Below, piece by piece: positions 30,477 to 57,572 of a stretch of DNA of 64,000 nucleotides (its first letter is position 1; each line of letters opens with the position of its first letter). The notes under the pieces are model-generated. The model was given only the letters and a program-made list of their open reading frames with translations. It had not been told where the DNA came from and ran no database searches. The translations under genes were made by a program, and so were the position numbers. This DNA comes from Escherichia coli (GTDB lineage: Bacteria; Pseudomonadota; Gammaproteobacteria; Enterobacterales; Enterobacteriaceae): the NCBI RefSeq assembly GCF_003790525.1, contig NZ_CP033636.1; one strand, written 5' to 3'.

Positions 30477-31881
30477 TGCCGTTTTCAACTTCAAAAAGTT
30501 ACTTTTGTCTCTTTCTGTTTGTGCTGCAATTTTAGCCCCGACTGCAAATGCAGACAACGCAATGCGTAACATTTTCAATGGCATGATGACGTCTACCAGC
30601 CCGGCCACCTTTTCCACAGCAACCCGTACAGGCATAGTTGGCGGGTCAATGTCTTACCGAACAACAAACGTTAATACCAACCTTGTTTCCATGTCGTTTC
30701 CAAAAGCTTCTGTCGGTTGTAATGGTATTGACGTTTTTCTTGGGTCCTTCAGCATGATCAACGGGGACCAGCTTGTGCAGGTGGCCCGTGGTATTGCCCA
30801 GGGTGCGGCTATCTATGCTTTTAACGTTGCTGTTTCAGCTATTTGTGCTGACTGTGCTGCAACGATTAATGACATCCAAAACAAACTGCAAGCGCTAAAT
30901 AAATTTGCGAAAGATTCATGCAATGCAACTTACTCTTTCCTTTCTGAAAACGTGGGTACGCCAAGCCAGTTCGCTAACTCAGTTAGCTCTGGACCAGCCT
31001 CAATTCTGGGATCGATTAATGGTCTCATTCCTGATTTTGGCTCATCGATGACAAAGTCACCTGAAGCTGTCACTTCTCAGGTTAAAGCAAAGGATCCCGA
31101 AGAGTTCGCTGAAAAATTCAGTGGTAACCTCTTCTATATGTCGTTCATGGATATTGATAAGGGAACAATGAACATCGGAGGGGTAACGGAGTTATCCGGT
31201 TATAAATTGGCAGAACAACTTATGTCTCTCGTGGGTACTGTCATTATCAACTGGGATAGCAAAGGCGAAAAAGCGGGAATGGAAGTCCGCCCGTCTACCA
31301 TGACTGTCACGGATTACATCATGGGGCCACCAGCTGGCGGATCAATTAAAATGCTCAAGTGTTCTCCGGCACCAGATCCATCATCCCCACGAAAGGCTCA
31401 GTGCCTTGTCATGTCAGAAGTTAATGACGGTGGTTTTAAGGGATTGAAGGATACCATTTCTGATCTTCTTTTAAACGTACAGAAAAAAATCATCAACGAC
31501 GTTCGTGTTTCAGATGATGAATTACGCATTATCTCCTATATCGGCATCCCGACCATTATCGACTCTTTGCAAACATTCGAAGCACCGGAAGGGTACGCAT
31601 ACATTCAGGACATAAGCACTATTGCTGCGACGAGCCTCGTAATCAACATGTTGCGCCAGGTTGAGGCCAAAATTTCAACCATGAGCATACCGAGTGAGTC
31701 GCTGTCGGGTAAAAGGGATGATCTCAACCGATTAACAGACAATCTCTCAAAACAGGTTAAAGCCGCCTATGAGCTATCGCACAGCCAGGTCGGTACCAGC
31801 TCGGACGTCATTTCAACCTGGGATAACCGTCGCCTGCAACGGAAGGCTTTCACTGAAAGTATTCGTGGCACACGTAACTGA
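30466..31881 (+). CDS. trhH: F-type TraH-like pilus assembly protein (TrhH-like, about 471 aa)
   Basis: Start reassigned to ATG at 30466 giving signal peptide MRSNAVFNFKKLLLSLSVCAAILAPTANA; overlaps trhF stop; stop TGA is the first 3 nt of the IS629-like element. Confidence 0.55.
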   Translation: MRSNAVFNFKKLLLSLSVCAAILAPTANADNAMRNIFNGMMTSTSPATFSTATRTGIVGGSMSYRTTNVNTNLVSMSFPKASVGCNGIDVFLGSFSMINGDQLVQVARGIAQGAAIYAFNVAVSAICADCAATINDIQNKLQALNKFAKDSCNATYSFLSENVGTPSQFANSVSSGPASILGSINGLIPDFGSSMTKSPEAVTSQVKAKDPEEFAEKFSGNLFYMSFMDIDKGTMNIGGVTELSGYKLAEQLMSLVGTVIINWDSKGEKAGMEVRPSTMTVTDYIMGPPAGGSIKMLKCSPAPDPSSPRKAQCLVMSEVNDGGFKGLKDTISDLLLNVQKKIINDVRVSDDELRIISYIGIPTIIDSLQTFEAPEGYAYIQDISTIAATSLVINMLRQVEAKISTMSIPSESLSGKRDDLNRLTDNLSKQVKAAYELSHSQVGTSSDVISTWDNRRLQRKAFTESIRGTRN

Positions 31882-31932
31882 ACCGCCCCGGGAATCCTGG
31901 AGACTAAACTTCCTGAGAAAGAGGTAAACAGG

Positions 31933-32259
31933 ATGACTAAAAATACTCGTTTTTCCCCCGAAGTCCGTCAACGGGCAGTCCGTATGGTTCTGGAAAGTCA
32001 GGATGAATATGACTCACAGTGGGCGGCAATTTGTTCCATTGCCCCAAAGATTGGCTGTACGCCGGAGACTCTGCGTGTCTGGGTTCGCCAGCATGAGCGG
32101 GATACCGGGGGCGGTGATGGTGGGCTCACCAGCGCTGAACGTCAGCGTCTGAAAGAGCTGGAACGTGAAAATCGTGAACTGCGCCGCAGTAACGATATCC
32201 TTCGCCAGGCTTCCGCTTATTTTGCGAAGGCGGAGTTCGACCGCCTCTGGAAAAAATGA
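31933..32259 (+). CDS. IS629-like transposase OrfA
   Basis: [23 protein letters not shown]... HTH/leucine-zipper OrfA of IS3 family. Confidence 0.8.
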
Positions 32260-33146
32260 TGCCACTGCTGGATAAGCTGCGTGAGCAGTACGGGGTCGGA
32301 CCGGTATGCAGCGAACTGCATATTGCCCCGTCAACGTATTACCATTGTCAGCAACAGCGACATCATCCGGATAAACGCAGTGCCCGTGCGCAGCACGATG
32401 ACTGGCTGAAGAGAGAGATACAGCGCGTATACGATGAAAATCATCAGGTGTACGGTGTGCGTAAAGTCTGGCGTCAGTTGTTACGGGAAGGAATCAGGGT
32501 GGCCAGATGTACAGTGGCGCGCCTCATGGCGGTTATGGGACTTGCCGGTGTTCTCCGGGGTAAAAAGGTCCGTACGACCATCAGCCGGAAAGCCGTTGCC
32601 GCAGGCGACCGCGTAAACCGTCAGTTCGTGGCAGAACGACCTGACCAGCTGTGGGTGGCTGATTTTACTTACGTCAGCACATGGCGGGGCTTCGTCTATG
32701 TGGCGTTCATCATTGATGTGTTTGCCGGATACATCGTGGGGTGGCGGGTCTCATCGTCCATGGAAACGACATTCGTGCTGGATGCACTGGAGCAGGCGTT
32801 ATGGGCCCGTCGACCGTCCGGCACGGTCCATCACAGTGATAAAGGTTCTCAGTATGTATCGCTGGCCTACACACAGCGGCTTAAGGAAGCCGGATTACTG
32901 GCATCAACAGGAAGTACAGGCGACTCGTATGACAACGCGATGGCGGAGAGCATCAATGGTCTTTACAAAGCGGAGGTAATACACCGTAAGAGCTGGAAAA
33001 ACCGTGCAGAAGTGGAACTGGCCACACTCACGTGGGTGGACTGGTATAACAATCGACGATTGCTGGAAAGGCTGGGCCATACTCCTCCGGCAGAAGCAGA
33101 AAAAGCTTATTATGCTTCCATCGGAAACGATGATCTGGCAGCCTGA
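32256..33146 (+). CDS. IS629-like transposase OrfB (DDE integrase core)
   Basis: Overlaps orfA by 4 nt; DDE-type catalytic core sequence. Confidence 0.8.
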
Positions 33147-33202
33147 GTTCACAGATAAAACACTCTCCAGGAAACCCGGGGCGGTTCAAACTGAGGTCTG
33201 AC

Positions 33203-36200
33203 ATGGATTACAACATATATACCCTGGGTGATATTGATTTTGTCTGGTCGGCTTTTACCGGTATTGCCCTAATCTTTTCTCAATATACTGGTGTAAAAGA
33301 GTTCCTGACCACGGCCGCCGTTGTAGCAGGTGTGAGCCTATTCTATAAAACGTGGCTATGGCTTCAGGCTCCGACCAAAAATGAATTACCGTTTTTCTCC
33401 TGGTTTTTGGGGTTGATCCTTTTCATGATGGCAATGGTTCGAGTGGATGTAACTATTGAATCTGTAAAGTCGGGAGAGGTCAGAAACGTCGACGGAATTC
33501 CAATTTTTATTGCTGCGATGGCCACCGTCACCACTAACTTAAGCCAGGGTTTGCTGAAGGATTATAAAACTGCGTTTGATCCGCTTTCTCCGGTGGACCT
33601 GTCTGCAACAACTCTGGACGATGACATCACCCTCGGTCCGATGATCCGATTCGTGAAGTTTTTGCAATGGGGCGGCGATAGCCAGGGCTACTGTTCTGCA
33701 TTTCCTGAACCGGCCAGCGGGCTAGGGCCAATGAACGTATGTGCTACCGTTCAGTCTCTTGCATACAACTGCCTGAAGGCTACCCAAAACTCAAGCGCAA
33801 ATATTGCCGGTAAAGAAACTATTTTTAACGATATTTTCTCAGCTAATCTGGCAGATAGCATGGACCGGATTAATCAGGCGATGAAAGGCGCACTGAAGAA
33901 TGCCTCTGCCAGTATTGTTGGCGCTAACGGTTCAAAATCTGGTACGTGTGATGAGGTCTGGTCAACTGTGAAACAGGTTACCAGTACAGCTGAAGCTCGC
34001 CAGACTATTTCCCTTATAGGACAGACAAACGGCATCCTTACTCCAGACGAAGCAAATGGTGCACCTACCGGCGCAAGTTTTACTGATGTTATGGCGTCAG
34101 CAAATGGTATGTACGGTAAGGCTATTGGTTCGTATGACGCCACCCTGAACCTGTTCATAATGAATGAGCTCAGAAATGGCGCAAGCAAATATAAGACCCC
34201 ACTCAGTCTGGCTTCCGATATGCAGTTGTTTGAGGCTTCTCTGAAGCGAACCAACACAATGGCTTCACAGGGCCAGTTGTGGTTACAACTGTCTGGAGCA
34301 GCAATCGCATTCCTTGAGATGTTTGCTTACATGGTTGCTCCATTTGCTTTGCTTATGCTGCTGGCGTTAGGTGGTAATGGTGTTGCCGCTGCGGCGAAAT
34401 ATTTGCAACTTATTCTCTTCGTGAATATGTGGCCGCTTACGGCAGTAATGGTCAACGCGTATGTGAAGAAAGTCGCGACGGCCGATCTGGATACCTGGAG
34501 CACCCTCAACAGCCAGAATAATGCCGTCACGTGGATGGGGCTCCCAGGGCTTGCGGAAACATACAGTTCATACCTGTCTGTTGCTTCCGCGCTTTATGCT
34601 CTGATTCCGGTACTCACATTATTCCTGATGACACAGTCGATTCACCCGATGATGAATGCGGTTAAGGGAGTGACCCCCGATGCGCCGGTGGATACTGGTC
34701 ATGTAACGCCCAAAGTATGGGATGGCCCTAACAGCGGTAAATCTTCATTTGGTGACGTGACACGAACCGCCTTGACCAGTACCGGTCAGGGATACAGCGA
34801 TGGCGGCGCAGTTGATTCAAGTAATTTCCGTCTTGGAATGTGGAATGCTGGTTCAAGTATCGCTAACAGCCAGGGGCAAGGATCAGCTGTAACCTCATCA
34901 GTTATGAGTGCGGCAAGTAATTCATTCCAGGCTGGTTACAGTCAGATGAGTGAAATTGGAAGGTCAGGACAGTCGAGCCAGCAGTTCTCAACCAACCTGC
35001 AAACAATGAAGCAGATCTCGGATAAGATTGGTGCCTCTGTAGCAGAAGGTATTGCAACGAAACATGGGGTGAGTGCGTCTCAGATGGCCAGCATTGCTTC
35101 AAATGTTATTCTAAACGCTGGGCTTAATGGAGGTGCTGGAACTGGCAACGGAGCCGGGCTGAAAGCAGCTGTAGCAGGGCAATTGAGTAGCGGCGCATCT
35201 AAGACCAATACAGGCAGTGACTCGCTTTCAAATGACCTTTCAAAAGCAATCACGAATCAGCTTAGCCAGGATTCTGCTTTGACTGACCAGTTCAGTAAAG
35301 CGGCGTCTCAGGTAAGCAGCGATCAGATATCCAATACTAATGCGTTTAAAGAAGCATCGTCGAAAATGAACCAGGCGACACAGACGATGGCGCAAAACAT
35401 TTCTACATCGGTATCGACTAACGCCAGCTCCAATAGTGGAATGAGCCTTGATTCTAAACAAAGCATTAACCTGGACAGGTTCTCCGATTCTATTCGCAAC
35501 AAAAACTTCAGTGATGATGATGTAAGGAATTTTGCTCGTAAGAATGGGCTGGATGAGAATGCGTTTATGGAGAAATTCAACTCCTATAACGATACCTTCA
35601 AGGCCAGTAATCAGCTTGGTTCGCAGCTTCAACGTACTGACGCGCTTGTGGCTGCAACACGAGATTTCAGTGAGCAAAAAATTGCGATTGATACCGCCCG
35701 GGGAGAGACGGCCGAAAGTAATAAACAGGATCTCCGTGAAACCTCCAGCCTGCTTAAAAGTCTGGTTTCCGACTTCGGTGGTAATGCACAGCAGCTGCTA
35801 CCTATCACCAATCAGCTCGACAGAATTTCAGGCGAAGGGTCAGGAATTAATACTATCACTCAGGCACAGGATAGAACTCCTGACAGCGTAAATACGTCTG
35901 GCGTGATGAGTGCGTCACGCGTAGGGGAACTGGGTGGAAGTGTTGATTCGCAGGCTAAACTCGGTCTTTCCTCCAACGCTCAGGACGCGACTCAGCGTGT
36001 CCCTGGAAAAAGTGAAGCTGGCTTTACTCCGTATAACCTTGATAACGCGGGCAAAGGCGATATTCAGGGAATACATAACAACAACGTGGGCCGCACTTAT
36101 TCTGATGAAGAAAGGAATGTGCTCAATTCTCTCAAAACGAATGGCCCTGTACTGAATAATCAGGGTGTAGAGAAAGTCGTCAATTCAGGTCAGGATGTCA

Positions 36201-37156
36201 GAAATGCAGAAGGCACATTTAACGATCTGGAAAAGGCTACCGGAGGTCGGGTGGTTGGTGATGGAATGGATCAACGAGCCACTGCTTTGAACAGTATGTA
36301 TCAGAGCGGTCAAGTTCGTGGCTTATCTAATAACACTGATAACTACTTTAGTCGTGTTGCCAACAACCCGAACTTAAGCCGGGACGATAAGCGAGCTGAA
36401 TTGGCACAGCAAGCTGTCTTTACCTATGGTGCCAGCACCATGGCTACCGGTGCCGAAAGAGAGCAGCTCAAAGCGGATACCCAGAAGATCCTTAATGAAC
36501 TGGGTAACTATAACGTTAACTGGAGTATGAATGACGTTCAGAGCATCCATAGCAGTTTCAACACTCATAACAGAGCTGATGGTTCACTTGAGTCAGTCGT
36601 ACGGGCAAACCTAGGAGAGGGTGGGTCGGGCGGTGGTCTCGTTGGTAACCGCACTCAGACCGTCACAGATCGCTTGGTTGGGGAAAAGATAGAGGCCAAC
36701 ACTGAGCGGGGCGCGATTTCTGGTGCGCTACTCGGGGGCCAGCAATTTGTTTCGGATACGCTAACCAGCGTTGGGGCGAAACCGGTAAATGAGATGCTTA
36801 CGGGAGCGGGCATCCTTCAAACCCAGACATCGATAGCAAATGATGCCTCTAACCCTGCAAATATGCCTGATTCTCTCCAGGGTAAAGTCCTTAATCACAT
36901 GCAGATGTCTGATGGCGTCGCAGCTGTAAGTGACCGGTATCAGAGTATTAGCAGCGACGGCGTTTCGACTTATGCGAATGCAGCGCAGAACTCTGAAAGG
37001 GCTATCCGGCAGCAATTGACGGATGACCCACGCTTTGGGCCTCAGAAAGCAGATGAATTCATTCAGTACATGAAGTCAGAGCTGAGCAACACAAATGAGC
37101 CTTACCAGTCACGTGTCGATAAAGCGGATCAGTGGCTTAATGAAAATAAAAGGTAG
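33203..37156 (+). CDS. trhG: F-type TraG-like mating-pair stabilisation protein (TrhG-like, 1317 aa)
   Basis: N-terminal polytopic membrane domain resembling F TraG, long Ser/Gly/Asn/Gln-rich periplasmic C-terminal region. Confidence 0.55.
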   Translation: MDYNIYTLGDIDFVWSAFTGIALIFSQYTGVKEFLTTAAVVAGVSLFYKTWLWLQAPTKNELPFFSWFLGLILFMMAMVRVDVTIESVKSGEVRNVDGIPIFIAAMATVTTNLSQGLLKDYKTAFDPLSPVDLSATTLDDDITLGPMIRFVKFLQWGGDSQGYCSAFPEPASGLGPMNVCATVQSLAYNCLKATQNSSANIAGKETIFNDIFSANLADSMDRINQAMKGALKNASASIVGANGSKSGTCDEVWSTVKQVTSTAEARQTISLIGQTNGILTPDEANGAPTGASFTDVMASANGMYGKAIGSYDATLNLFIMNELRNGASKYKTPLSLASDMQLFEASLKRTNTMASQGQLWLQLSGAAIAFLEMFAYMVAPFALLMLLALGGNGVAAAAKYLQLILFVNMWPLTAVMVNAYVKKVATADLDTWSTLNSQNNAVTWMGLPGLAETYSSYLSVASALYALIPVLTLFLMTQSIHPMMNAVKGVTPDAPVDTGHVTPKVWDGPNSGKSSFGDVTRTALTSTGQGYSDGGAVDSSNFRLGMWNAGSSIANSQGQGSAVTSSVMSAASNSFQAGYSQMSEIGRSGQSSQQFSTNLQTMKQISDKIGASVAEGIATKHGVSASQMASIASNVILNAGLNGGAGTGNGAGLKAAVAGQLSSGASKTNTGSDSLSNDLSKAITNQLSQDSALTDQFSKAASQVSSDQISNTNAFKEASSKMNQATQTMAQNISTSVSTNASSNSGMSLDSKQSINLDRFSDSIRNKNFSDDDVRNFARKNGLDENAFMEKFNSYNDTFKASNQLGSQLQRTDALVAATRDFSEQKIAIDTARGETAESNKQDLRETSSLLKSLVSDFGGNAQQLLPITNQLDRISGEGSGINTITQAQDRTPDSVNTSGVMSASRVGELGGSVDSQAKLGLSSNAQDATQRVPGKSEAGFTPYNLDNAGKGDIQGIHNNNVGRTYSDEERNVLNSLKTNGPVLNNQGVEKVVNSGQDVRNAEGTFNDLEKATGGRVVGDGMDQRATALNSMYQSGQVRGLSNNTDNYFSRVANNPNLSRDDKRAELAQQAVFTYGASTMATGAEREQLKADTQKILNELGNYNVNWSMNDVQSIHSSFNTHNRADGSLESVVRANLGEGGSGGGLVGNRTQTVTDRLVGEKIEANTERGAISGALLGGQQFVSDTLTSVGAKPVNEMLTGAGILQTQTSIANDASNPANMPDSLQGKVLNHMQMSDGVAAVSDRYQSISSDGVSTYANAAQNSERAIRQQLTDDPRFGPQKADEFIQYMKSELSNTNEPYQSRVDKADQWLNENKR

Positions 37157-37220
37157 GTGAGTTTCAAATATAACCTAATGAAAATTAAACGTATTTACTA
37201 AAATATGGTGTTAAACAGTG

Positions 37221-37254
37221 AAGGCCGCAAAGTATAAATTTGCGGCCTTTTTTA
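37221..37254 (+). terminator. rho-independent terminator after trhG
   Basis: AAGGCCGCAAA-GTATAAA-TTTGCGGCCTT followed by TTTTTATT. Confidence 0.65.
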
Positions 37255-37336
37255 TTCATAAACTTAGCTGATTTCTGTACAATCTCGTTCTTTATGTAGT
37301 AGATGTTCCGGCTGAATAGGCACTGAGACACAGGAC

Positions 37337-38626
37337 ATGGCAAACAAAGTAAAAGATATTAACCATCCATCTATTAATGATAGAGAACGTCGTGTCTTGG
37401 AAGAACTAGGTATATGTAATGGTGCACACTTTAATAATTTGCTTAAAATTGCCCGCTATCGTCTCAATGCTGGTTATTCCCATGCTGAAACTGTACTTTC
37501 TTTACGCTGCACAGGCTCATACATTGAGCGTACCGTAATGCATGCCCCCAAAAATACCCGTAAAAAACTACGTGAACACCTACAAAAATTTGCTCTAGAG
37601 ACAGAGCAGAATAGCGAAACCGTTTATTCTAATTACAATACTCAGCTCCGTGTAATTCGAGAAAAAAAACAAAAAGAACATTTGATGGCCAAGCGTAAGG
37701 AGTACATTCGCGTTCGGCTAGAATCTTGTAAAACAAGGGGGGAGCGGTTGATGGCGTTCGGTCTAATTGACACTATCGATCCCGAATATATACAGGAACT
37801 GGAAGACCATCTGGCTAAGGTTAGTCATCGTAAGATGTTGGAGGATAATGACCGAAAGGTAAAAGAACGCAATAGACTGTTGAGTGAAATGAAAAAAAAT
37901 TCAGCCCGTCTCACCGAACGAATAATCCTGTCGGAAAAAGAGGAACCAGATGAAGAAGCCTCTCTTCCAATACTGGTACGTAGATATATTCCCGGCGGAC
38001 GTGCCGCAGAGTTCGCTATTTATGCACGTTCAAACGCTACATTACCTCCACTAGAGATCATTGAGGGTTTTCTAGGGTATCCAGTTGGTGGCCGCGAAAG
38101 ATCGCAGGAAGATCAGCCTAAATCTCCACCGGCCGCGATTATGGTCGCTATGAAGACTGATGGTATAGAAGAAAAGGAGCTTCAGCCGAATATTCCTGAT
38201 GAAACTACTGTACCGGGTAAGCGTAAGGGTAGTAAGACAACTGTCGAGACACGACCAGATCAGGCCTCATTTGCAGAAGCCGTCCGCAACAACTGTTATG
38301 ACCAATGTGTGATTACAGGCTCTAGACTGCGCCAGCGCACTGAGGCTGCTCATCTGATGGAGCATCGTAACGGAGGAGTAGACCATTATACAAATGGGTT
38401 GCTCTTACGCCATGATATACACGATCTTTTCGACGCAAACATGATTGCCATTCATCCGGTGACGTTGGAGGTTAACATTCTCGCTGAAGCTTTGGCGGTA
38501 GATCATGATTTAGCGGCATATCAAGGAGAGTTTATTAAGCCGCTGCGTAAACCCATCAATACTGAATTCCTAAAGCACCGTTGGCAGGTTTTTCAGCACC
38601 GGAACCAAACTGAGCAGCAAGCTTAA
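37337..38626 (+). CDS. HNH endonuclease domain protein with coiled-coil-like N-terminal region (429 aa)
   Basis: C-terminal CYDQCVITG...AAHLMEHRNGGVDHYTNGLLLRHDIHDLFD HNH-like motif; monocistronic with own upstream TACAAT -10-like hexamer. Confidence 0.5.
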   Translation: MANKVKDINHPSINDRERRVLEELGICNGAHFNNLLKIARYRLNAGYSHAETVLSLRCTGSYIERTVMHAPKNTRKKLREHLQKFALETEQNSETVYSNYNTQLRVIREKKQKEHLMAKRKEYIRVRLESCKTRGERLMAFGLIDTIDPEYIQELEDHLAKVSHRKMLEDNDRKVKERNRLLSEMKKNSARLTERIILSEKEEPDEEASLPILVRRYIPGGRAAEFAIYARSNATLPPLEIIEGFLGYPVGGRERSQEDQPKSPPAAIMVAMKTDGIEEKELQPNIPDETTVPGKRKGSKTTVETRPDQASFAEAVRNNCYDQCVITGSRLRQRTEAAHLMEHRNGGVDHYTNGLLLRHDIHDLFDANMIAIHPVTLEVNILAEALAVDHDLAAYQGEFIKPLRKPINTEFLKHRWQVFQHRNQTEQQA

Positions 38627-38733
38627 GAGACCGGCATGTTTTCTTCCAACTGTGCAATGCTTTGACCCGGGGCAGAAATGGAGAAGCATAGAACTGATAA
38701 TGCGGGCATGCTCTCCGTAAAAGTTACTTTAAT

Positions 38734-39300
38734 TCAGGAAGCCCAACGTTTCATAAGCAGATGATACCTGGTGTTAAGAGCTGCAAGATCAGATTCGGTG
38801 AGGCCGGTGTAATAATTGGTTTTTTGCAAATGTGGATAACCGACCGGGAATAATGATTCGTCGTCATCAAGGCAGATAAATGCTTTAACTCGATGTGAAA
38901 ATACAAAGTCCTCACACTCAGCAGCCCGCACACCTGACTGATTAGGTTTTAAATATACCGAATCGGTAGCACCTATGACTTTGTCTCTATAAGGTAGCCG
39001 GAAAAGAGATTTCAGGTAAGTTATACTGGCACATTCACGCCACGAACTGGAGATGACAATCACCATGGAAGGGCATTTATCCAGTAATTTTTCCACCAAT
39101 GGCATTCGCTCAAAGGTTTCATTTTTGCACCTGTGACAAACCCCATCGAAATCTAAGAAAAGCACGACATGCGAATCAGGGAGAGGGCCCCATAAACCAG
39201 CTGTTGTTTCTTCAGGAACACATACTTCTTCATGAAGAGGGCTTTTCTGCATCAAGAAAGAAGAGAGAATCTTAAATATATTTCTTGCAGAAAAAGACAA
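38734..39300 (-). CDS. HAD-like hydrolase-fold protein (188 aa)
   Basis: VVLFLDFDGVCH matches HAD motif I (DxDG[TV]); downstream of transglycosylase gene. Confidence 0.4.
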   Translation of the reverse strand: MSFSARNIFKILSSFLMQKSPLHEEVCVPEETTAGLWGPLPDSHVVLFLDFDGVCHRCKNETFERMPLVEKLLDKCPSMVIVISSSWRECASITYLKSLFRLPYRDKVIGATDSVYLKPNQSGVRAAECEDFVFSHRVKAFICLDDDESLFPVGYPHLQKTNYYTGLTESDLAALNTRYHLLMKRWAS

Positions 39301-39382: not shown

Positions 39383-39922
39383 TTATTTAACAACAGGAGT
39401 CGGGTTTTGCTCCGGGACATTTTTAGCTATATGGCCATTGTATCGAGGAGGTTGTTGGGTCCATTGATAAAGCTCACCCATCCCGTTACGCTGCTGGATC
39501 CGGCGATTGTACTTTACCATGAAGTTAAATATGTACTTTGCACGTACCTTTGGGGTTTTGCTGTTGTAATCTGCAATCCCTTCAAACACATTGCCCTTGC
39601 GATCAACAATTTTTCTGTAGAGCCACCATGTTCCAACCCAGAAACTAGCGCAAGCATCGTAAGCCAGAACCCGCCACGTTACAGTCGGGAAATGCTTTTT
39701 TATTTCAGGCAGATTGGATGAGTTGATCTGCATCGGGCCAATATCATAAGTGCCGTTAGTATTCCTGCTGAAAGTACCAACCTTACCGCCTTCATTGTCA
39801 AACAACGTAAAAACCAGTTCGGCATCAATTCCGAAGAAGCGGGCGGCATCCGTAATGCACTGAGTGTAAATCTCATCAGGAACGGGAATAGGTTTCACAT
39901 CATCTGCTGGTGGTGTAAACAC
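39383..39922 (-). CDS. lytic transglycosylase (SLT domain), conjugation-associated peptidoglycan hydrolase
   Basis: YDIGPMQINSSN motif typical of SLT-domain proteins; GTG start with GGAG RBS. Confidence 0.6.
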   Translation of the reverse strand: MFTPPADDVKPIPVPDEIYTQCITDAARFFGIDAELVFTLFDNEGGKVGTFSRNTNGTYDIGPMQINSSNLPEIKKHFPTVTWRVLAYDACASFWVGTWWLYRKIVDRKGNVFEGIADYNSKTPKVRAKYIFNFMVKYNRRIQQRNGMGELYQWTQQPPRYNGHIAKNVPEQNPTPVVK

Positions 39923-46713: not shown

Positions 46714-47533
46714 GGCACTGTTGCAAATAGTCGGTGGTGATAAACTTATCATCCCCTTTTGCTGATGGAGCTGCACATGAACCCATTCAAAGGCCGGCAT
46801 TTTCAGCGTGACATCATTCTGTGGGCCGTACGCTGGTACTGCAAATACGGCATCAGTTACCGTGAGCTGCAGGAGATGCTGGCTGAACGCGGAGTGAATG
46901 TCGATCACTCCACGATTTACCGCTGGGTTCAGCGTTATGCGCCTGAAATGGAAAAACGGCTGCGCTGGTACTGGCGTAACCCTTCCGATCTTTGCCCGTG
47001 GCACATGGATGAAACCTACGTGAAGGTCAATGGCCGCTGGGCGTATCTGTACCGGGCCGTCGACAGCCGGGGCCGCACTGTCGATTTTTATCTCTCCTCC
47101 CGTCGTAACAGCAAAGCTGCATACCGGTTTCTGGGTAAAATCCTCAACAACGTGAAGAAGTGGCAGATCCCACGATTCATCAACACGGATAAAGCGCCCG
47201 CCTATGGTCGCGCGCTTGCTCTGCTCAAACGCGAAGGCCGGTGCCCGTCTGACGTTGAACACCGACAGATTAAGTACCGGAACAACGTGATTGAATGCGA
47301 TCATGGCAAACTGAAACGGATAATCAACGCCACGCTGGGATTTAAATCCATGAAGACGGCTTACGCCACCATCAAAGGTATTGAGGTGATGCGTGCACTA
47401 CGCAAAGGCCAGGCCTCAGCATTTTATTATGGTGATCCCCTGGGCGAAATGCGCCTGGTAAGCAGAGTTTTTGAAATGTAAGGCCTTTGAATAAGACAAA
47501 AGGCTGCCTCATCGCTAACTTTGCAACAGTGCC
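46714..47533 (+). mobile_element. IS26 (820 bp), no flanking 8-bp target duplication
   Basis: 14-bp terminal repeats GGCACTGTTGCAAA / TTTGCAACAGTGCC; flanks CTTTGCGT versus GGCGAAGC differ. Confidence 0.95.
46777..47481 (+). CDS. tnpA: IS26 transposase Tnp26 (234 aa)
   Basis: MNPFKGRHFQRDIILWAVRWYCKYGISYRELQEM... recognised IS26 transposase. Confidence 0.95.
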   Translation: MNPFKGRHFQRDIILWAVRWYCKYGISYRELQEMLAERGVNVDHSTIYRWVQRYAPEMEKRLRWYWRNPSDLCPWHMDETYVKVNGRWAYLYRAVDSRGRTVDFYLSSRRNSKAAYRFLGKILNNVKKWQIPRFINTDKAPAYGRALALLKREGRCPSDVEHRQIKYRNNVIECDHGKLKRIINATLGFKSMKTAYATIKGIEVMRALRKGQASAFYYGDPLGEMRLVSRVFEM

Positions 47534-47689
47534 GGCGAAGCTTATCAGCGCTTCCAGTTGCGGACGCTTGACATCCTTGCCGGATGCCTTGTCGCTAAAA
47601 GCGCGATCAACCTTGACGCCTTCCAGTTGCCGTTCCGGGTTCTGGTCGAAGGTGCTGACCCTGATATACCCAATGCGCTGTCCAGTCAT
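47534..47689 (-). pseudogene. tnpR: Tn21-family resolvase tnpR, first 52 codons only, truncated by IS26
   Basis: MTGQRIGYIRVSTFDQNPERQLEGVKVDRAFSDKASGKDVKRPQLEALISFA then IS26 end. Confidence 0.85.
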
Positions 47690-47810
47690 GGAATTCCCTG
47701 CAAAATGTCAGGGAAGACTCTATGACCTTCAACGAGATATGTCAATAAATTCAAAATTCAATCCTATCCTGACGCAATTTACACATGGCATCTGACATCA
47801 GGTTAGGGTA
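47690..47810. promoter_or_regulatory. Tn21-type res site region (resolvase binding sites and tnpR promoter)
   Basis: Position between tnpR start and tnpM stop as in Tn21; boundaries approximate. Confidence 0.5.
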
Positions 47811-47814
47811 TGCC

Positions 47815-48165
47815 TCAACCTGACGGCGGCGAATCACAAGCGTCCGGTTTGACGCTGGTTTCGGTCGCAGTGCTGGCCCGCGCCTGGAAGCGCTGATAGC
47901 ACTCCAGCCCGCAGAAATGCTCCACGTACTCGGCCCCTTCCGGCGTGAAGGCGGCATCGAGCGGGATTTCCTTGCAGCACACGCAGCAACTGGTGCTCGG
48001 TTCATTGGCGTTCATGGTGGTGTTCCTCCATTGGTTGACGAAGCCGACGAAGGCCGCCGCCGGCATCGGCCTGGCGAACAGGAAACCCTGCACCGTGTCG
48101 CAACCCGCCTGCCGCAACCACGCAAGGCAGTCGGGTGTTTCCACACCCTCGGCTACCACCTCCAT
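47815..48165 (-). CDS. tnpM: TnpM (EAL-domain C-terminal remnant of urf2M, 116 aa)
   Basis: [33 protein letters not shown]...; start codon abuts integron IRi as in Tn21. Confidence 0.75.
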
Positions 48166-48190
48166 TGTCGTTTTCAGAAGACGGCTGCAC
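48166..48190. repeat. class 1 integron IRi (25-bp inverted repeat at the intI1 end)
   Basis: TGTCGTTTTCAGAAGACGGCTGCAC. Confidence 0.9.
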
Positions 48191-48367
48191 TGAACGTCAG
48201 AAGCCGACTGCACTATAGCAGCGGAGGGGTTGGATCCATCAGGCAACGACGGGCTGCTGCCGGCCATCAGCGGACGCAGGGAGGACTTTCCGCAACCGGC
48301 CGTTCGATGCGGCACCGATGGCCTTCGCGCAGGGGTAGTGAATCCGCCAGGATTGACTTGCGCTGCC

Positions 48368-49381
48368 CTACCTCTCACTAGTGAGGGGCGGCAGCGCATC
48401 AAGCGGTGAGCGCACTCCGGCACCGCCAACTTTCAGCACATGCGTGTAAATCATCGTCGTAGAGACGTCGGAATGGCCGAGCAGATCCTGCACGGTTCGA
48501 ATGTCGTAACCGCTGCGGAGCAAGGCCGTCGCGAACGAGTGGCGGAGGGTGTGCGGTGTGGCGGGCTTCGTGATGCCTGCTTGTTCTACGGCACGTTTGA
48601 AGGCGCGCTGAAAGGTCTGGTCATACATGTGATGGCGACGCACGACACCGCTCCGTGGATCGGTCGAATGCGTGTGCTGCGCAAAAACCCAGAACCACGG
48701 CCAGGAATGCCCGGCGCGCGGATACTTCCGCTCAAGGGCGTCGGGAAGCGCAACGCCGCTGCGGCCCTCGGCCTGGTCCTTCAGCCACCATGCCCGTGCA
48801 CGCGACAGCTGCTCGCGCAGGCTGGGTGCCAAGCTCTCGGGTAACATCAAGGCCCGATCCTTGGAGCCCTTGCCCTCCCGCACGATGATCGTGCCGTGAT
48901 CGAAATCCAGATCCTTGACCCGCAGTTGCAAACCCTCACTGATCCGCATGCCCGTTCCATACAGAAGCTGGGCGAACAAACGATGCTCGCCTTCCAGAAA
49001 ACCGAGGATGCGAACCACTTCATCCGGGGTCAGCACCACCGGCAAGCGCCGCGACGGCCGAGGTCTTCCGATCTCCTGAAGCCAGGGCAGATCCGTGCAC
49101 AGCACCTTGCCGTAGAAGAACAGCAAGGCCGCCAATGCCTGACGATGCGTGGAGACCGAAACCTTGCGCTCGTTCGCCAGCCAGGACAGAAATGCCTCGA
49201 CTTCGCTGCTGCCCAAGGTTGCCGGGTGACGCACACCGTGGAAACGGATGAAGGCACGAACCCAGTGGACATAAGCCTGTTCGGTTCGTAAACTGTAATG
49301 CAAGTAGCGTATGCGCTCACGCAACTGGTCCAGAACCTTGACCGAACGCAGCGGTGGTAACGGCGCAGTGGCGGTTTTCAT
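48368..49381 (-). CDS. intI1: class 1 integron integrase IntI1 (337 aa)
   Basis: [53 protein letters not shown]... recognised IntI1. Confidence 0.95.
49266..49294 (+). promoter_or_regulatory. integron cassette promoter Pc, variant with -35 TGGACA and -10 TAAACT (PcH1-type); P2 lacks GGG insertion
   Basis: TGGACA-N17-TAAACT inside the intI1 5-prime region; downstream TTGTTA-N14-TACAGT has the inactive 14-bp spacing. Confidence 0.7.
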
Positions 49382-49449
49382 GGCTTGTTATGACTGTTTT
49401 TTTGTACAGTCTATGCCTCGAGCATCCAAGCAGCAAGCGCGTTACGCCG

Positions 49450-49520
49450 TGGGTCGATGTTTGATGTTATGGAGCAGCAACGATGTTACGCAGCAGGGCA
49501 GTCGCCCTAAAACAAAGTTG
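49450..49520. other. attI1 recombination site
   Basis: 5-prime conserved segment end ...GCAGCAGGGCAGTCGCCCTAAAACAAAGTT followed by first cassette. Confidence 0.7.
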
Positions 49521-49547
49521 TACGTAGAACTCGAAGGCAATTTAAGT

Positions 49548-50390
49548 ATGAAAGAAAAGGTAGTTGTTGATAAAGCGATTTCACTCTATACCGAATCATT
49601 CGGCGACCCGGCCCATGAACCCATTATTCTGATCATGGGGGCAATGTCGTCTGCGGTGTGGTGGCCTGATGAGTTTTGTTCCCAACTTGCCAAAATGGGT
49701 CGCTATGTGATCCGGTACGACCACCGTGATACCGGGAAATCAACAAGCTATGAGCCAGGTCAGGCTCCATATTCCGTTGAAGAATTAGCAGATGATGTGG
49801 TTCGCGTCATTGATGGTTATGGTCTGGAAGCTGCTCATTTAGTCGGCATGTCTTTGGGGGGATTTCTTTCCCAGCTTGTAGCTCTCAAGTATCCGAAACG
49901 TGTGAAGAGCTTGACGCTGATTGCTTCAGAACGGCTTGCAGATGCAGATCCGGATATGCCCGCTTTTGATCCTGCCATCATTGAGTATCACCAACGGGCG
50001 GAATCGCTGGATTGGTCTGATAGAGATGCTGTCGTCGCGTATCAGGTCGGAGCGTGGCGAATCAACTCAGGTACTGCGCATGCTTTTGACGCTGAGAAGA
50101 TACAAAACATCGCTGAGTTAAATTTTGATCGCACTCCGAATATCCTGACAACATTCAACCACACTACTTTAGGTGGTGGCGAGAGATGGCTCGGGAGATT
50201 AAATGAGATAGCTGTACCAACTTTGATCATTCACGGCACGGAGGATCCTGTACTTCCTTATGTGCATGGGTTGGCACTGAAAGATGCGATTCGTGGTTCA
50301 AAAATGCTGACACTCGAAGGCACGGGACATGAGTTGCATCATGAAGACTGGCCGAGGATTATCCAGGCGATTAAGGGGCAAACGTCATAG
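49548..50390 (+). CDS. estX: EstX (alpha/beta hydrolase, putative esterase) gene cassette
   Basis: [35 protein letters not shown]...; GMSLGG nucleophile elbow; first cassette of sul3-type array. Confidence 0.8.
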
Positions 50391-50485
50391 CTATCGGTTG
50401 CACCGTACAACAAGTTGCTGCACCGGAAAAATTACTCGCTGCGCTCGCAATTTTCCGGTGAGCAAGGCGTTAGCGCCCACAACGC

Positions 50486-51094
50486 ATGTCTCTCGCACTC
50501 TTTGACTTCGATGGCACAATTACCACTCGCGAGACGATGCCGGATTTTGTGCGGCGGTCCGTGAGCCGACGTCGACTGCTTGTGGGACAACTGCTTCTGG
50601 CGCCGCTCGTGCTTGGGTATAAGATTGGGATCTTGTCTGGCACCCTGATCCGTCGCGTCATCGTTCGCTTCGCTTACAGCGGCATCCCGGCCTCGGTCCT
50701 GGAGGCCCAAGGTCGTGACTTCGCTCAGAGCTACCTGCCCAATACCCTCCGCGGCGAGGCAATGCAGCGCATCGCATGGCACAAAGCGCAGGGGCACAAG
50801 GTTGTCGTTGTTTCCGGCGGACTTGAGGCTTACTTGGAGCCGTGGTGCGACTCGCACGGCGTTGAGCTCATCTGTTCTTCCTTGCAACAGTCGGACGGAA
50901 TCCTAACGGGCCGCTATGAAGGGCGGCAGTGCGTCTTGACGGAGAAGGCTCGCTTGGTCCGTGAGCGCTACGACCTGGCGACATATCCGACCATCTACGC
51001 GTACGGAGACACGCCGGAGGACCTGGATATGCTGGCCATTGCTACTAAGCAGTACTATCAGTGGCAAGAGGTTGGCGTCGCAGGTGGGCGCTAA
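50486..51094 (+). CDS. psp: Psp (HAD-family putative phosphoserine phosphatase) gene cassette
   Basis: MSLALFDFDGTITTRE HAD motif I; second cassette. Confidence 0.8.
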   Translation: MSLALFDFDGTITTRETMPDFVRRSVSRRRLLVGQLLLAPLVLGYKIGILSGTLIRRVIVRFAYSGIPASVLEAQGRDFAQSYLPNTLRGEAMQRIAWHKAQGHKVVVVSGGLEAYLEPWCDSHGVELICSSLQQSDGILTGRYEGRQCVLTEKARLVRERYDLATYPTIYAYGDTPEDLDMLAIATKQYYQWQEVGVAGGR

Positions 51095-51151
51095 CAAGTC
51101 ATTCAAGCCGACGCCGCTTCGCGGCGCGGCTTAATTCTGGTGTTAGACATC

Positions 51152-51943
51152 ATGAGGGTAGCGGTGACCATCGAAATTTCGAACCAACTATCAGAGGTGC
51201 TAAGCGTCATTGAGCGCCATCTGGAATCAACGTTGCTGGCCGTGCATTTGTACGGCTCCGCAGTGGATGGCGGCCTGAAGCCATACAGCGATATTGATTT
51301 GTTGGTTACTGTGGCCGTAAAGCTTGATGAAACGACGCGGCGAGCATTGCTCAATGACCTTATGGAGGCTTCGGCTTTCCCTGGCGAGAGCGAGACGCTC
51401 CGCGCTATAGAAGTCACCCTTGTCGTGCATGACGACATCATCCCGTGGCGTTATCCGGCTAAGCGCGAGCTGCAATTTGGAGAATGGCAGCGCAATGACA
51501 TTCTTGCGGGTATCTTCGAGCCAGCCATGATCGACATTGATCTAGCTATCCTGCTTACAAAAGCAAGAGAACATAGCGTTGCCTTGGTAGGTCCGGCAGC
51601 GGAGGAATTCTTTGACCCGGTTCCTGAACAGGATCTATTCGAGGCGCTGAGGGAAACCTTGAAGCTATGGAACTCGCAGCCCGACTGGGCCGGCGATGAG
51701 CGAAATGTAGTGCTTACGTTGTCCCGCATTTGGTACAGCGCAATAACCGGCAAAATCGCGCCGAAGGATGTCGCTGCCGACTGGGCAATAAAACGCCTAC
51801 CTGCCCAGTATCAGCCCGTCTTACTTGAAGCTAAGCAAGCTTATCTGGGACAAAAAGAAGATCACTTGGCCTCACGCGCAGATCACTTGGAAGAATTTAT
51901 TCGCTTTGTGAAAGGCGAGATCATCAAGTCAGTTGGTAAATGA
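51152..51943 (+). CDS. aadA2: aminoglycoside 3''-adenylyltransferase AadA2 (streptomycin/spectinomycin)
   Basis: MRVAVTIEISNQLSEVLSVIERHLESTLLAVHLYGSAVDGGLKP...; followed by about 60-bp attC. Confidence 0.9.
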   Translation: MRVAVTIEISNQLSEVLSVIERHLESTLLAVHLYGSAVDGGLKPYSDIDLLVTVAVKLDETTRRALLNDLMEASAFPGESETLRAIEVTLVVHDDIIPWRYPAKRELQFGEWQRNDILAGIFEPAMIDIDLAILLTKAREHSVALVGPAAEEFFDPVPEQDLFEALRETLKLWNSQPDWAGDERNVVLTLSRIWYSAITGKIAPKDVAADWAIKRLPAQYQPVLLEAKQAYLGQKEDHLASRADHLEEFIRFVKGEIIKSVGK

Positions 51944-52076
51944 TGTCTAACAATTCGTTCAAGCCGACCGCGCTACGCGCGGCGGCTTAACTCCGGCGTT
52001 GGGCGCACAATAAGGCTCCTTGCAGAGTTGCTTGAAAGTTGTTACGATTCAAATTCAATCATGAGATAGTCAGCAG

Positions 52077-52106
52077 ATGAGCACTTCCAAGAACGCAGAC
52101 AAGTAA
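52077..52106 (+). CDS. cmlA leader peptide (MSTSKNADK) of translational attenuator
   Basis: 9-codon ORF about 100 bp upstream of cmlA1 start, as in inducible cmlA. Confidence 0.7.
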   Translation: MSTSKNADK

Positions 52107-52204
52107 GCCGCAGCAACCTTCATTTTTCGGTTGTTGCGGCGTTCTCATGAATCCTTTTGCTCTACGGGAGCGCCGCCAAATCCTTTGTTCAAGGAGATGG
52201 TTTC

Positions 52205-53464
52205 GTGAGCTCAAAAAACTTTAGTTGGCGGTACTCCCTTGCCGCCACGGTGTTGTTGTTATCACCGTTCGATTTATTGGCATCACTCGGCATGGACATG
52301 TACTTGCCAGCAGTGCCGTTTATGCCAAACGCGCTTGGTACGACAGCGAGCACAATTCAGCTTACGCTGACAACGTACTTGGTCATGATTGGTGCCGGTC
52401 AGCTCTTGTTTGGACCGCTATCGGACCGACTGGGGCGCCGCCCCGTTCTACTGGGAGGTGGCCTCGCCTACGTTGTGGCGTCAATGGGCCTCGCTCTTAC
52501 GTCATCGGCTGAAGTCTTTCTGGGGCTTCGGATTCTTCAGGCTTGTGGTGCCTCGGCGTGCCTTGTTTCCACATTTGCAACAGTACGTGACATTTACGCA
52601 GGTCGCGAGGAAAGTAATGTCATTTACGGCATACTCGGATCCATGCTGGCCATGGTCCCGGCGGTAGGCCCATTGCTCGGAGCGCTCGTCGACATGTGGC
52701 TTGGGTGGCGGGCTATCTTTGCGTTTCTAGGTTTGGGCATGATCGCTGCATCTGCAGCAGCGTGGCGATTCTGGCCTGAAACCCGGGTGCAACGAGTTGC
52801 GGGCTTGCAATGGTCGCAGCTGCTACTCCCCGTTAAGTGCCTGAACTTCTGGTTGTACACGTTGTGTTACGCCGCTGGAATGGGTAGCTTCTTCGTCTTT
52901 TTCTCCATTGCGCCCGGACTAATGATGGGCAGGCAAGGTGTGTCTCAGCTTGGCTTCAGCCTGCTGTTCGCCACAGTGGCAATTGCCATGGTGTTTACGG
53001 CTCGTTTTATGGGGCGTGTGATACCCAAGTGGGGCAGCCCAAGTGTCTTGCGAATGGGAATGGGATGCCTGATAGCTGGAGCAGTATTGCTTGCCATCAC
53101 CGAAATATGGGCTTTGCAGTCCGTGTTAGGCTTTATTGCTCCAATGTGGCTAGTGGGTATTGGTGTCGCCACAGCGGTATCTGTGGCGCCCAATGGCGCT
53201 CTTCGAGGATTCGACCATGTTGCTGGAACGGTCACGGCAGTCTACTTCTGCTTGGGCGGTGTACTGCTAGGAAGCATCGGAACGTTGATCATTTCGCTGT
53301 TGCCGCGCAACACGGCTTGGCCGGTTGTCGTGTACTGTTTGACCCTTGCAACAGTCGTGCTCGGTCTGTCTTGTGTTTCCCGAGTGAAGGGCTCTCGCGG
53401 CCAGGGGGAGCATGATGTGGTCGCGCTACAAAGTGCGGAAAGTACATCAAATCCCAATCGTTGA
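52205..53464 (+). CDS. cmlA1: chloramphenicol efflux MFS transporter CmlA1 (419 aa, GTG start)
   Basis: AAGGAG RBS then GTG; VSSKNFSWRYSLAATVLLLSPFDLLASLGMDMYLP... recognised CmlA. Confidence 0.9.
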   Translation: MSSKNFSWRYSLAATVLLLSPFDLLASLGMDMYLPAVPFMPNALGTTASTIQLTLTTYLVMIGAGQLLFGPLSDRLGRRPVLLGGGLAYVVASMGLALTSSAEVFLGLRILQACGASACLVSTFATVRDIYAGREESNVIYGILGSMLAMVPAVGPLLGALVDMWLGWRAIFAFLGLGMIAASAAAWRFWPETRVQRVAGLQWSQLLLPVKCLNFWLYTLCYAAGMGSFFVFFSIAPGLMMGRQGVSQLGFSLLFATVAIAMVFTARFMGRVIPKWGSPSVLRMGMGCLIAGAVLLAITEIWALQSVLGFIAPMWLVGIGVATAVSVAPNGALRGFDHVAGTVTAVYFCLGGVLLGSIGTLIISLLPRNTAWPVVVYCLTLATVVLGLSCVSRVKGSRGQGEHDVVALQSAESTSNPNR

Positions 53465-53556
53465 GAGAATGTGGCAAGCTATCGCCCAACAAATCGCTGC
53501 AGCCGACCCAAAACCGCTACGCGGTTTCGGTCGGCTGAGCTCAGGCGTTAAACATC

Positions 53557-54348
53557 ATGAGGGAAGCGGTGATCGCCGAAGTATCGACTCAACTATCAGA
53601 GGTAGTTGGCGTCATCGAGCGCCATCTCGAACCGACGTTGCTGGCCGTACATTTGTACGGCTCCGCAGTGGATGGCGGCCTGAAGCCACACAGTGATATT
53701 GATTTGCTGGTTACGGTGACCGTAAGGCTTGATGAAACAACGCGGCGAGCTTTGATCAACGACCTTTTGGAAACTTCGGCTTCCCCTGGAGAGAGCGAGA
53801 TTCTCCGCGCTGTAGAAGTCACCATTGTTGTGCACGACGACATCATTCCGTGGCGTTATCCAGCTAAGCGCGAACTGCAATTTGGAGAATGGCAGCGCAA
53901 TGACATTCTTGCAGGTATCTTCGAGCCAGCCACGATCGACATTGATCTGGCTATCTTGCTGACAAAAGCAAGAGAACATAGCGTTGCCTTGGTAGGTCCA
54001 GCGGCGGAGGAACTCTTTGATCCGGTTCCTGAACAGGATCTATTTGAGGCGCTAAATGAAACCTTAACGCTATGGAACTCGCCGCCCGACTGGGCTGGCG
54101 ATGAGCGAAATGTAGTGCTTACGTTGTCCCGCATTTGGTACAGCGCAGTAACCGGCAAAATCGCGCCGAAGGATGTCGCTGCCGACTGGGCAATGGAGCG
54201 CCTGCCGGCCCAGTATCAGCCCGTCATACTTGAAGCTAGACAGGCTTATCTTGGACAAGAAGAAGATCGCTTGGCCTCCCGCGCAGATCAGTTGGAAGAA
54301 TTTGTTCACTACGTGAAAGGCGAGATCACCAAGGTAGTCGGCAAATAA
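53557..54348 (+). CDS. aadA1: aminoglycoside 3''-adenylyltransferase AadA1
   Basis: MREAVIAEVSTQLSEVVGVIERHLEPTLLAVHLYGSAVDGGLKPHSDIDLL... recognised AadA1. Confidence 0.9.
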   Translation: MREAVIAEVSTQLSEVVGVIERHLEPTLLAVHLYGSAVDGGLKPHSDIDLLVTVTVRLDETTRRALINDLLETSASPGESEILRAVEVTIVVHDDIIPWRYPAKRELQFGEWQRNDILAGIFEPATIDIDLAILLTKAREHSVALVGPAAEELFDPVPEQDLFEALNETLTLWNSPPDWAGDERNVVLTLSRIWYSAVTGKIAPKDVAADWAMERLPAQYQPVILEARQAYLGQEEDRLASRADQLEEFVHYVKGEITKVVGK

Positions 54349-54517
54349 TGTCTAACAATTCGTTCAAGCCGACGCCGCTTCGCGGCGCGGCTTAACTCAA
54401 GCGTTAGATGCCAGATTTGGCGTTGCGTATGCTCACAGAAAATCGACAGCCGCAAGACTGTTTTTGGCAACTCATAGCCACCACTATTTATCCTTCATAC
54501 CGTAGAGGAGATTGCAC

Positions 54518-54850
54518 GTGAAGAACTGGCTCTTTCTGGCTATTGCAATATTTGGTGAGGTCGTCGCAACTTCCGCACTGAAGTCCAGCCATGGATTCAC
54601 CAAGTTAGTTCCTTCTGTTGTAGTTGTGGCTGGCTACGGGCTTGCGTTCTATTTCCTCTCTCTCGCACTCAAGTCCATCCCGGTCGGCATTGCTTATGCT
54701 GTTTGGGCTGGCCTCGGCATCGTACTTGTGGCAGCTATCGCTTGGATCTTCCATGGCCAGAAACTAGACTTGTGGGCGTTCGTTGGCATGGGACTTATCG
54801 TTAGTGGCGTCGCCGTTCTAAATCTGCTATCCAAGGTCAGCGCACATTGA
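54518..54850 (+). CDS. qacH: SMR-family quaternary ammonium compound efflux protein QacH (GTG start, about 110 aa)
   Basis: [27 protein letters not shown]...; followed by aadA-type attC; last cassette. Confidence 0.8.
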
Positions 54851-55096
54851 TCGGGCTGGCATCTAACAGTTCATTCAAGCCGACGCCGCTTCGCGGCGCG
54901 GCTTAATTCAGGTGTTAGTCGGACGCCTACGGCGCCGAGGAAAAAAGAAACCAAACCATTCTTGCTGCCAAAGAGAAAAACCCCTTACGGTGGCGTACTG
55001 GGAAAGTGCGTATCTACGACGCCTTGCCGGTCTCAATGTCATGCCGTCCTCTTTCGAAGGCTGCTTGATGCAAACCTCTCAAAAATCTGGCATAAA

Positions 55097-55783: not shown

Positions 55784-56029
55784 ACACTACTATTTAGCTA
55801 CGAAAACTCAAGAGAAGTACACAAAACCTTTTGGAAGTGATGGAAGTTTAAGTCCTCTTGATTATAGTGTAGGTATTGGAACAGGTTTAGAATTAGGACA
55901 TTTCCAGTTTATGTTTGGCTATGATTACCCTCTTAGTAACAGTTCGAAAGATCCAGACCTAAGTCAAGTACGCCAACACAACTTCAGAGCAAGTATAGCA
56001 TATTCATTTAGAAAGCTAAAAAAATAAAA

Positions 56030-57535: not shown

Positions 57536-57572
57536 GATAGTTTCGTCCTTGCCTCAAAAACCATGTTTGGTA

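Follow-up and report, generated by a model that had tools for sequence, protein, structure and literature searches.

The window, as we call the whole stretch of 64,000 nucleotides analysed here (Escherichia coli, NCBI RefSeq assembly GCF_003790525.1, contig NZ_CP033636.1), corresponds to Tra1, a transfer region, on an IncHI2 plasmid, and it contains a complete gene encoding a protein of 429 amino acids, whose product is named 'HNH endonuclease signature motif containing protein' in RefSeq. A prediction made earlier from the letters of this DNA (hereafter the original prediction) had described a stand-alone gene lying between the terminator of trhG and a set of convergent genes, and the open reading frame, its start codon and length and its placement are all as described there: a G+C-rich hairpin followed by a T-run, which resembles an intrinsic terminator and ends the trhG (F operon) transcript, lies on the 5' side of the gene, and two genes of the opposite strand, encoding a HAD-domain protein and a lytic transglycosylase, lie on its 3' side (Table 1). 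The gene had also been credited with promoter-like elements of its own. One candidate of the sigma-70 type is indeed present, and its -10 region is in part kept at the locus of a 57%-identical allele, P0003 (see below); however, a scan for such sites returned only two as against 5.1 in shuffled sequences, so that the candidate does not stand out by enrichment, and its role as a promoter is putative.

Table 1. Features of the HNH gene, its protein product and its immediate neighbours (positions in the window).
Feature	Position	Strand	Remarks
trhG	33203..37156		stop at 37156; 1317 aa, TraG_N
Intrinsic-terminator-like hairpin and T-run	37220..37250	+	12 pairs, 6 G-C; ends trhG (F operon) transcript
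Candidate sigma-70-like promoter, TTCATA-17-TACAAT	37255..37283	+	~50 nt 5' of the ATG; 9/12 match
HNH gene (429 aa)	37337..38626	+	ATG start, complete; RefSeq WP_001284752.1
Compact helical domain, aa 5-70	37349..37546	+	predicted helices 15-23, 32-44, 49-57, 60-68
Two long helices, aa 72-130 and 149-193	37550..37915	+	AlphaFold2 prediction
Conserved mini-domain, aa 205-247	37949..38077	+	DEEAxLxxLVRRYIPGGxAAEF...PLxIIEGFLG; from alignment
Pro/Glu-rich linker, aa 250-300	38084..38236	+	low confidence, pLDDT 43-55
HNH_2 (His-Me finger) nuclease domain, aa 301-429	38237..38623	+	from Pfam, profile and fold
Catalytic residue H339	38351-38353	+	triad
Catalytic residue N353	38393-38395	+	triad
Catalytic residue H362	38420-38422	+	triad
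Spacer, HNH gene to HAD gene	38627..38733		107 bp; right edge of variable slot
HAD-domain gene	38734..39300	-	convergent with HNH gene
Lytic transglycosylase gene	39383..39922	-	convergent with HNH gene

The surroundings of the gene were searched for further signals and for possible partners. No convincing terminator was found in the spacer between the HNH and HAD genes, whose folding is no better than that of shuffled sequences (z-score +1.19); the only antisense ORF of at least 50 aa reaches no further than the first seven bases of the HNH gene; and no Rfam family matched the HNH-gene region below E=0.6. There is no co-directional small ORF in the slot that the gene occupies in the window, and neither a methyltransferase nor an immunity gene adjoins it, its flanks being trhG and the genes for the HAD protein and the lytic transglycosylase; the nearest annotated C5-methyltransferase lies ~25 kb off on a plasmid with an identical backbone. 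Furthermore, the window holds no second copy or paralogue of the 429-aa protein.

The C-terminal part of the protein carries a genuine HNH fold, as had been predicted, and the profile searches that might have contradicted this assignment upheld it. The Pfam family HNH_2 (PF13391) matches aa 324-373 over the full length of the model (E=3.6e-10), and the same HMM is matched by 142 of the 144 relatives that we aligned. When the profile of these relatives was compared with the PDB, one solved protein was matched, the Type IV restriction enzyme VcaM4I (6yex; 3.8e-10). An AlphaFold2 model built on the alignment, with a mean pLDDT of 86.4, is highly confident over aa 310-429 (95-98) and depicts the N-terminal half as entirely helical; Foldseek searches with the model retrieved the same enzymes and ScoMcrA, all of them of Type IV and thus modification-dependent, and the ββα-metal fold of the HNH_2 family was recovered. 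In the alignment of 144 sequences H339 is invariant and both N353 and H362 are conserved in at least 90%, and all three residues align with the motif of VcaM4I, in which the corresponding His activates water, the Asn is structural and the second His is a metal ligand (PMC7897488). Judged by its sequence, the nuclease domain is of the TagI/VcaM4I type with its catalytic residues intact, and the 429-aa protein probably has nuclease activity. Two details of the original prediction need amendment. The protein does not end with the motif, since 67 residues follow it that are still part of the nuclease domain. The Cys pair that was noticed, C320 and C324, does exist, but only C324 is invariant in the wider family, and the aligned stretch of VcaM4I has a Cys opposite C324 only; because of this pattern of conservation, the pair probably does not form a CxxC zinc site. 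PADLOC and NCBIfam recognised the nuclease domain alone, and weakly so: the 'HNH' match in PADLOC (1.7e-5) falls far under the family cut-off, and NCBIfam NF045808 ('phosphorothioated DNA-binding restriction endonuclease') scored 16.5 bits against a cut-off of 180.

The N-terminal 300 residues had been characterized as Lys/Glu/Arg-rich, heptad-like and devoid of any recognisable domain, a description that holds in part. They are charged, yet the enrichment is moderate (K+R 18%, D+E 15%); two long helices are predicted, but a crude test of a/d positions gave a maximum of 0.47, not above that of shuffled sequences (0.51±0.10). No match to aa 1-300 was found in Pfam, NCBIfam, PADLOC, PHROGs or the PDB by phmmer and profile searches, and sequence and fold searches for PUA/SRA/EVE, winged-helix, SBD and NEco domains were likewise negative; the structural model, however, predicts a compact helical domain and a conserved mini-domain in this region. 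The compact domain at the very N-terminus is modelled with high confidence (pLDDT 96-98), and its residues 49-68, with the conserved Y62 and R65, possibly form a helix-turn-helix in the model. The two long helices that follow, between which an R137/F141/G142/I144 motif is conserved, presumably pack as a hairpin stalk, and the mini-domain, predicted as three helices (aa 210-246), is the best-conserved segment of the family outside the nuclease, being 70% identical to P0003 where the other N-terminal parts are 39-52% identical. A MerR-like fold (a wHTH with a long dimerisation helix) was matched by a model built on a shallow alignment, but did not come up again in searches with the better one. 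In a profile search with this half of the protein, aa 123-207 also showed a sub-threshold similarity (E=0.29) to 3-methyladenine DNA glycosylase I (TAG; 2jg6, 4ai4), which is probably due to chance. The possible helix-turn-helix raises the question of whether the protein is a sequence-specific binder, either a regulator or an orphan enzyme resembling the Type IIS group, in which the N-terminal HTH reads a site and the nuclease nicks or cuts nearby in the service of recombination or regulation; we consider this unlikely.

The two halves of the protein differ greatly in their distribution. The C-terminal module was found in 4184 cluster representatives at E<=0.001, joined to many different N-termini, and only ~10 of these have the N-terminus seen here. 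When 5.8 billion proteins were searched with a profile of residues 1-255, the sequences retrieved all belonged to the family itself and were always fused to HNH_2, and this helical module of ~250 residues is confined to ~10 enterobacterial lineages. A variable reader joined to a constant HNH domain is described as the modular pattern typical of MDREs in a study of these enzymes (PMC6765204). As far as comparison of sequences can tell, the 429-aa protein combines the known catalytic domain of Type IV HNH enzymes with a previously undescribed N-terminal module. It shares the type of its catalytic domain with TagI (SRA-HNH, 6ghs), VcaM4I (EVE-HNH, 6yex) and other single-chain Type IV HNH enzymes; the sensor of TagI and VcaM4I, however, is a β-barrel of the PUA superfamily of ~150 residues, whereas the module found here is all-helical and some 100 residues longer. 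Like the Type IV enzymes, which work as a single chain independently of NTP and have no cognate methyltransferase, the protein consists of one chain in which no NTPase domain was found, but it lacks a recognised modification-sensing domain such as they possess, and the SBD, SRA and NEco domains of ScoMcrA, EcoKMcrA (both Type IV HNH enzymes) and NF045808 are absent from it. The Type IIS enzymes HphI, BbrI and AlwI (His-Me finger group 6, PMC5714182) likewise join HNH_2 to a separate, poorly understood N-terminal recognition domain; these enzymes have methyltransferases, whereas none adjoins the gene of the 429-aa protein. The 6mA-dependent Type IV enzymes HhiV4I and SruGXI (PMC11037411) offer a similar concept, with a helical or winged-helix reader and HNH cutting at a distance, but their targets are Dam sites, and a Dam+ E. 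coli host suffers from their toxicity; the gene studied here, by contrast, is stably carried in E. coli, and its product has no winged-helix match.

The gene is widespread on plasmids of this type. Hundreds of IncHI2 plasmids (MOBH relaxase, MPF_F mating-pair system), whose hosts are Salmonella, E. coli, Enterobacter and Klebsiella, share with 100% identity a region of 1.65 kb containing it, and ~520 plasmid records carry a gene that is at least 99% identical. Among 5426 complete E. coli genomes it was found in 222, with 222 of its places on plasmids and 4 on chromosomes. Nevertheless, it is no fixed part of the IncHI backbone, in the sense of genes that keep their position in both IncHI1 and IncHI2: in IncHI1 the HAD gene follows trhG directly and the slot is empty, while in ~426 IncHI2 plasmids of another lineage (lineage B, whose flanks are 95% identical) the slot is filled by an unrelated cassette on the opposite strand. 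This cassette (L011:2777-4354 of NZ_CP053645.1, equivalent to 37251-38733 of the window) encodes a 353-aa HNH protein of the PF01844 type, followed by a 168-aa protein of the YrhA/YPO0640 family (NF038335, 2.1e-36); no similarity was found between it and the gene of the 429-aa protein, and it may be a nuclease-partner pair. The hairpin of the trhG terminator is common to both IncHI2 lineages, whose sequences part directly past the T-run and re-join ~20 bp past the stop codon of the HAD gene. No direct or inverted repeats flank the slot, so that there is no sign of a transposable cassette. In yet another IncHI2-like plasmid, in which TrhG, the lytic transglycosylase and DsbC are 94-96% identical to those of the window, the slot holds P0003, whose nuclease domain is 80% identical to that of the 429-aa protein, in contrast to 39-52% in the N-terminal half. 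The HAD protein, for its part, is only 85% identical between these two plasmids, as against the 94-96% of the other backbone proteins, and the 3' end of its gene differs between the IncHI2 lineages, a divergence that is consistent with recombination tracts running out of the slot.

The gene is also found broken. At least 13 plasmids carry a copy into which IS5, ISKpn26 or an IS3-family element has inserted, and such alleles occur on plasmids that are still typed as conjugative from their gene content. The two disrupted alleles that we inspected (NZ_MW264512.1 and NZ_OU015329.1, with IS5 and an IS3-family element) are both split in the linker, at the equivalent of ~38100-38140, so that the N-terminal part remains as one CDS of 258-264 aa and the C-terminal part as another of 161-180 aa, and such splits could reflect either a hotspot of insertion or selection for inactivation. 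Since these natural isolates carry interrupted copies, selection for the gene cannot be strict, nor does the gene behave as one essential to the plasmid. Because the slot is empty in IncHI1, replaced in lineage B, occupied by IS-broken copies elsewhere and filled by a 57%-identical allele in one plasmid, the sequences indicate that the gene is dispensable, exchangeable cargo, the putative recognition half of which evolves fastest.

Such a slot invites the view that the protein is a homing-like selfish endonuclease, which would cut the empty trhG-HAD junction, or alleles without the gene, and spread by recombinational repair. The polymorphism at one precise intergenic site (empty, the present allele, the 57% allele or an unrelated HNH cassette), the sharp left boundary directly past the trhG terminator and the raised divergence of the HAD gene, which is consistent with co-conversion, all agree with it, and an 'HNH endonuclease' beside an mcr-1 transposon has been remarked upon where an IncHI2 plasmid is variable (PMC5748712), although it may not be the gene considered here. 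The domain, however, is of the HNH_2/TagI type and not the PF01844/HNH_3 type which homing enzymes combine with NUMOD or AP2 domains, homologues lie in unrelated loci with no flanks in common, the slot lacks flanking repeats, and identity of at least 99% in ~520 plasmids speaks for clonal inheritance together with the backbone; on this evidence homing appears improbable.

The position of the gene inside Tra1, directly after trhG, suggests in turn a nuclease of plasmid competition or transfer, co-expressed with the tra genes, which would degrade competing or incoming plasmids or the DNA of the recipient, or would aid the processing of conjugative DNA. That the second IncHI2 lineage has a nuclease cassette at the same place, and that two further small HNH_2 paralogues occur on IncHI2 backbones, is in keeping with this idea, to which we nonetheless give a low probability: IncHI1 has the same transfer system without the gene, a strong terminator-like hairpin parts the gene from trhG, plasmids with IS-broken alleles are still typed conjugative by gene content, homologues reside in chromosomal islands and on a phage-plasmid without T4SS genes, and the relaxase function of the plasmid is already performed by MobH. 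The original prediction had left open whether the protein acts in defence, anti-defence or nicking; defence is now clearly favoured, and nothing that we found supports anti-defence or nicking in transfer. Nor does the gene correspond to any known gene of transfer or regulation. With TrhR, TrhY, HtdA and the Mpf genes of Tra1 it has its location alone in common, and identity with a tra or regulatory gene such as trhR or trhY was ruled out by gene order, by the literature and by the empty slot of IncHI1. The known regulators of Tra1, TrhY and TrhR, the latter described as a membrane protein, are encoded by the R operon (PMC7366339, PMC9598596), which probably corresponds to a pair of unnamed ORFs annotated on the 5' side of the trhF-like gene.

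Full-length homologues bear on the question of defence. Those inspected are 36-42% identical to the 429-aa protein, and three of eight loci contain recognised defence genes. In Salmonella bongori the homologue is divergently oriented from a Type I R-M system and adjoins the MkoC gene of a Mokosh type II system (E=0) as well as another HNH_2 gene; in S. enterica it lies within an integrative island and is transcribed divergently from another Type I R-M system; and in Enterobacter hormaechei PifA (2e-238) is encoded two genes downstream of it, in a neighbourhood that also includes Gabija (GajB, 1.8e-122) and Septu (PtuA, 3.4e-138, and PtuB). The other homologues were found in a small Pectobacterium island, on a phage-plasmid and in accessory regions resembling plasmids or islands, with no recognised defence genes around them. 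Deposited phage genomes yielded no full-length relatives, and matches to the C-terminal domain alone in 8 records. In one clade of homologues an ORF of 90-91 aa lies directly upstream (L002:9725-9997, L004:9716-9991, L015:9723-9998); the three copies are 41-80% identical to one another, neither Pfam nor PADLOC matched them, and tblastn of these 90-aa sequences against the window found nothing. At L004 an ORF of 86 aa lies between the HNH gene and PifA downstream of it. That the protein is a toxin or an anti-defence effector, damaging the DNA of the host or a competitor, or a defence component of the host, under the control of its own N-terminal half or of an unlinked factor, is very unlikely, for although the lineage-B cassette in the same slot resembles a nuclease with a small partner, one clade of homologues has the conserved upstream gene, and the isolated HNH domain of VcaM4I is toxic and auto-inhibited by its linker helix (PMC7897488), the window has no adjacent small partner or immunity gene such as accompanies polymorphic-toxin-type nucleases, no toxin-domain or secretion-signal features were found, and 222 complete E. 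coli genomes carry the gene stably.

The explanation that we prefer, with an even balance of confidence and doubt, is that the 429-aa protein is a solitary restriction-like defence nuclease equipped with a new targeting module. It would be a single-chain, NTP-independent DNA endonuclease acting alone, without a methyltransferase or an immunity gene, in which the ββα-metal module of the HNH_2 type (aa ~301-429) would do the cutting and a flexible linker of ~50 residues would tie it to the helical N-terminus. The N-terminal module most likely would supply recognition of the substrate and/or oligomerisation, and would thereby keep the nuclease off the DNA of the host and the plasmid, so that foreign DNA entering the cell, whether of phages or of rival mobile elements, would be cut if it bears a feature that the resident DNA does not have. 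Both the targeting role of this module and the defence phenotype are suggested by the constancy of the nuclease beside its changing N-termini and by the company of the homologues. The feature could be a base modification, a sequence or a structure; dependence on modification is a matter of pure analogy, because the N-terminal module matches no known modification sensor. E. coli is normally Dam+ and Dcm+, and since the gene is stably carried in such cells, we infer that its target can be neither the Dam nor the Dcm mark. In view of the TagI/VcaM4I-type domain, the variable slot and the defence islands, the earlier judgement that the function is not deducible from the sequence seems too pessimistic. 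Our literature search found no report on the 429-aa protein, experiments on full-length homologues included.

A bolder version of this explanation, which we hold only tentatively and think somewhat doubtful, is that the N-terminal ~250 aa represent a new class of sensor for foreign DNA, reading either a modification or a phage component, and define a new single-chain family akin to Type IV, and that the trhG-HAD slot is a dedicated hotspot for the exchange of nuclease cassettes that give different lineages of these resistance plasmids, which have spread worldwide, their own phenotypes of defence or competition. IncHI2 plasmids rank among the main carriers of multidrug resistance, including mcr-1, and exactly this gene occurs in ~4% of the complete E. 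coli genomes. If the protein is an active restriction-type nuclease, it would sway which phages and incoming plasmids succeed in hosts of IncHI2 plasmids, it would provide a new targeting domain for modification- or sequence-directed HNH nucleases, and its slot would stand out as a hotspot at which plasmids take up nuclease cargo; if it is inactive or merely selfish, it would be an ordinary accessory gene. Its chief interest lies in the novel putative reader module and in the occupation of one Tra1 slot by unrelated nuclease cassettes in two IncHI2 lineages.

Several other features of the plasmid and its relatives were observed. On the IncHI2 backbone of pEB247 (NZ_LN830952.1; L019:2182-2997 and 4548-5405) two proteins with the HNH_2 signature, of 271 and 285 aa, are encoded near hipA and a gene of the hns family, and one of them has a C-terminal domain that shares ~44% identity with its counterpart in the 429-aa protein. 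Past the umuDC/DsbA backbone of the window, at ~47500-59700, lies the resistance region of the plasmid, with IS26 and segments related to class 1 integrons in an arrangement unlike that of pSTM6-275; its BLAST matches are fragmented, at 89-99% identity. Finally, an IS3-family element of 1310 bp (31879-33188), with 25-nt terminal inverted repeats (TGAACCGCCCCGGGAATCCTGGAGA) and the reading frames orfA (31933-32259) and orfB (32256-33146), is inserted exactly between the stop codon of trhH and the start codon of trhG, which are only 8 bp apart in pSTM6-275; it parts trhG from the promoter of the F operon, and could affect the conjugation of this particular plasmid.
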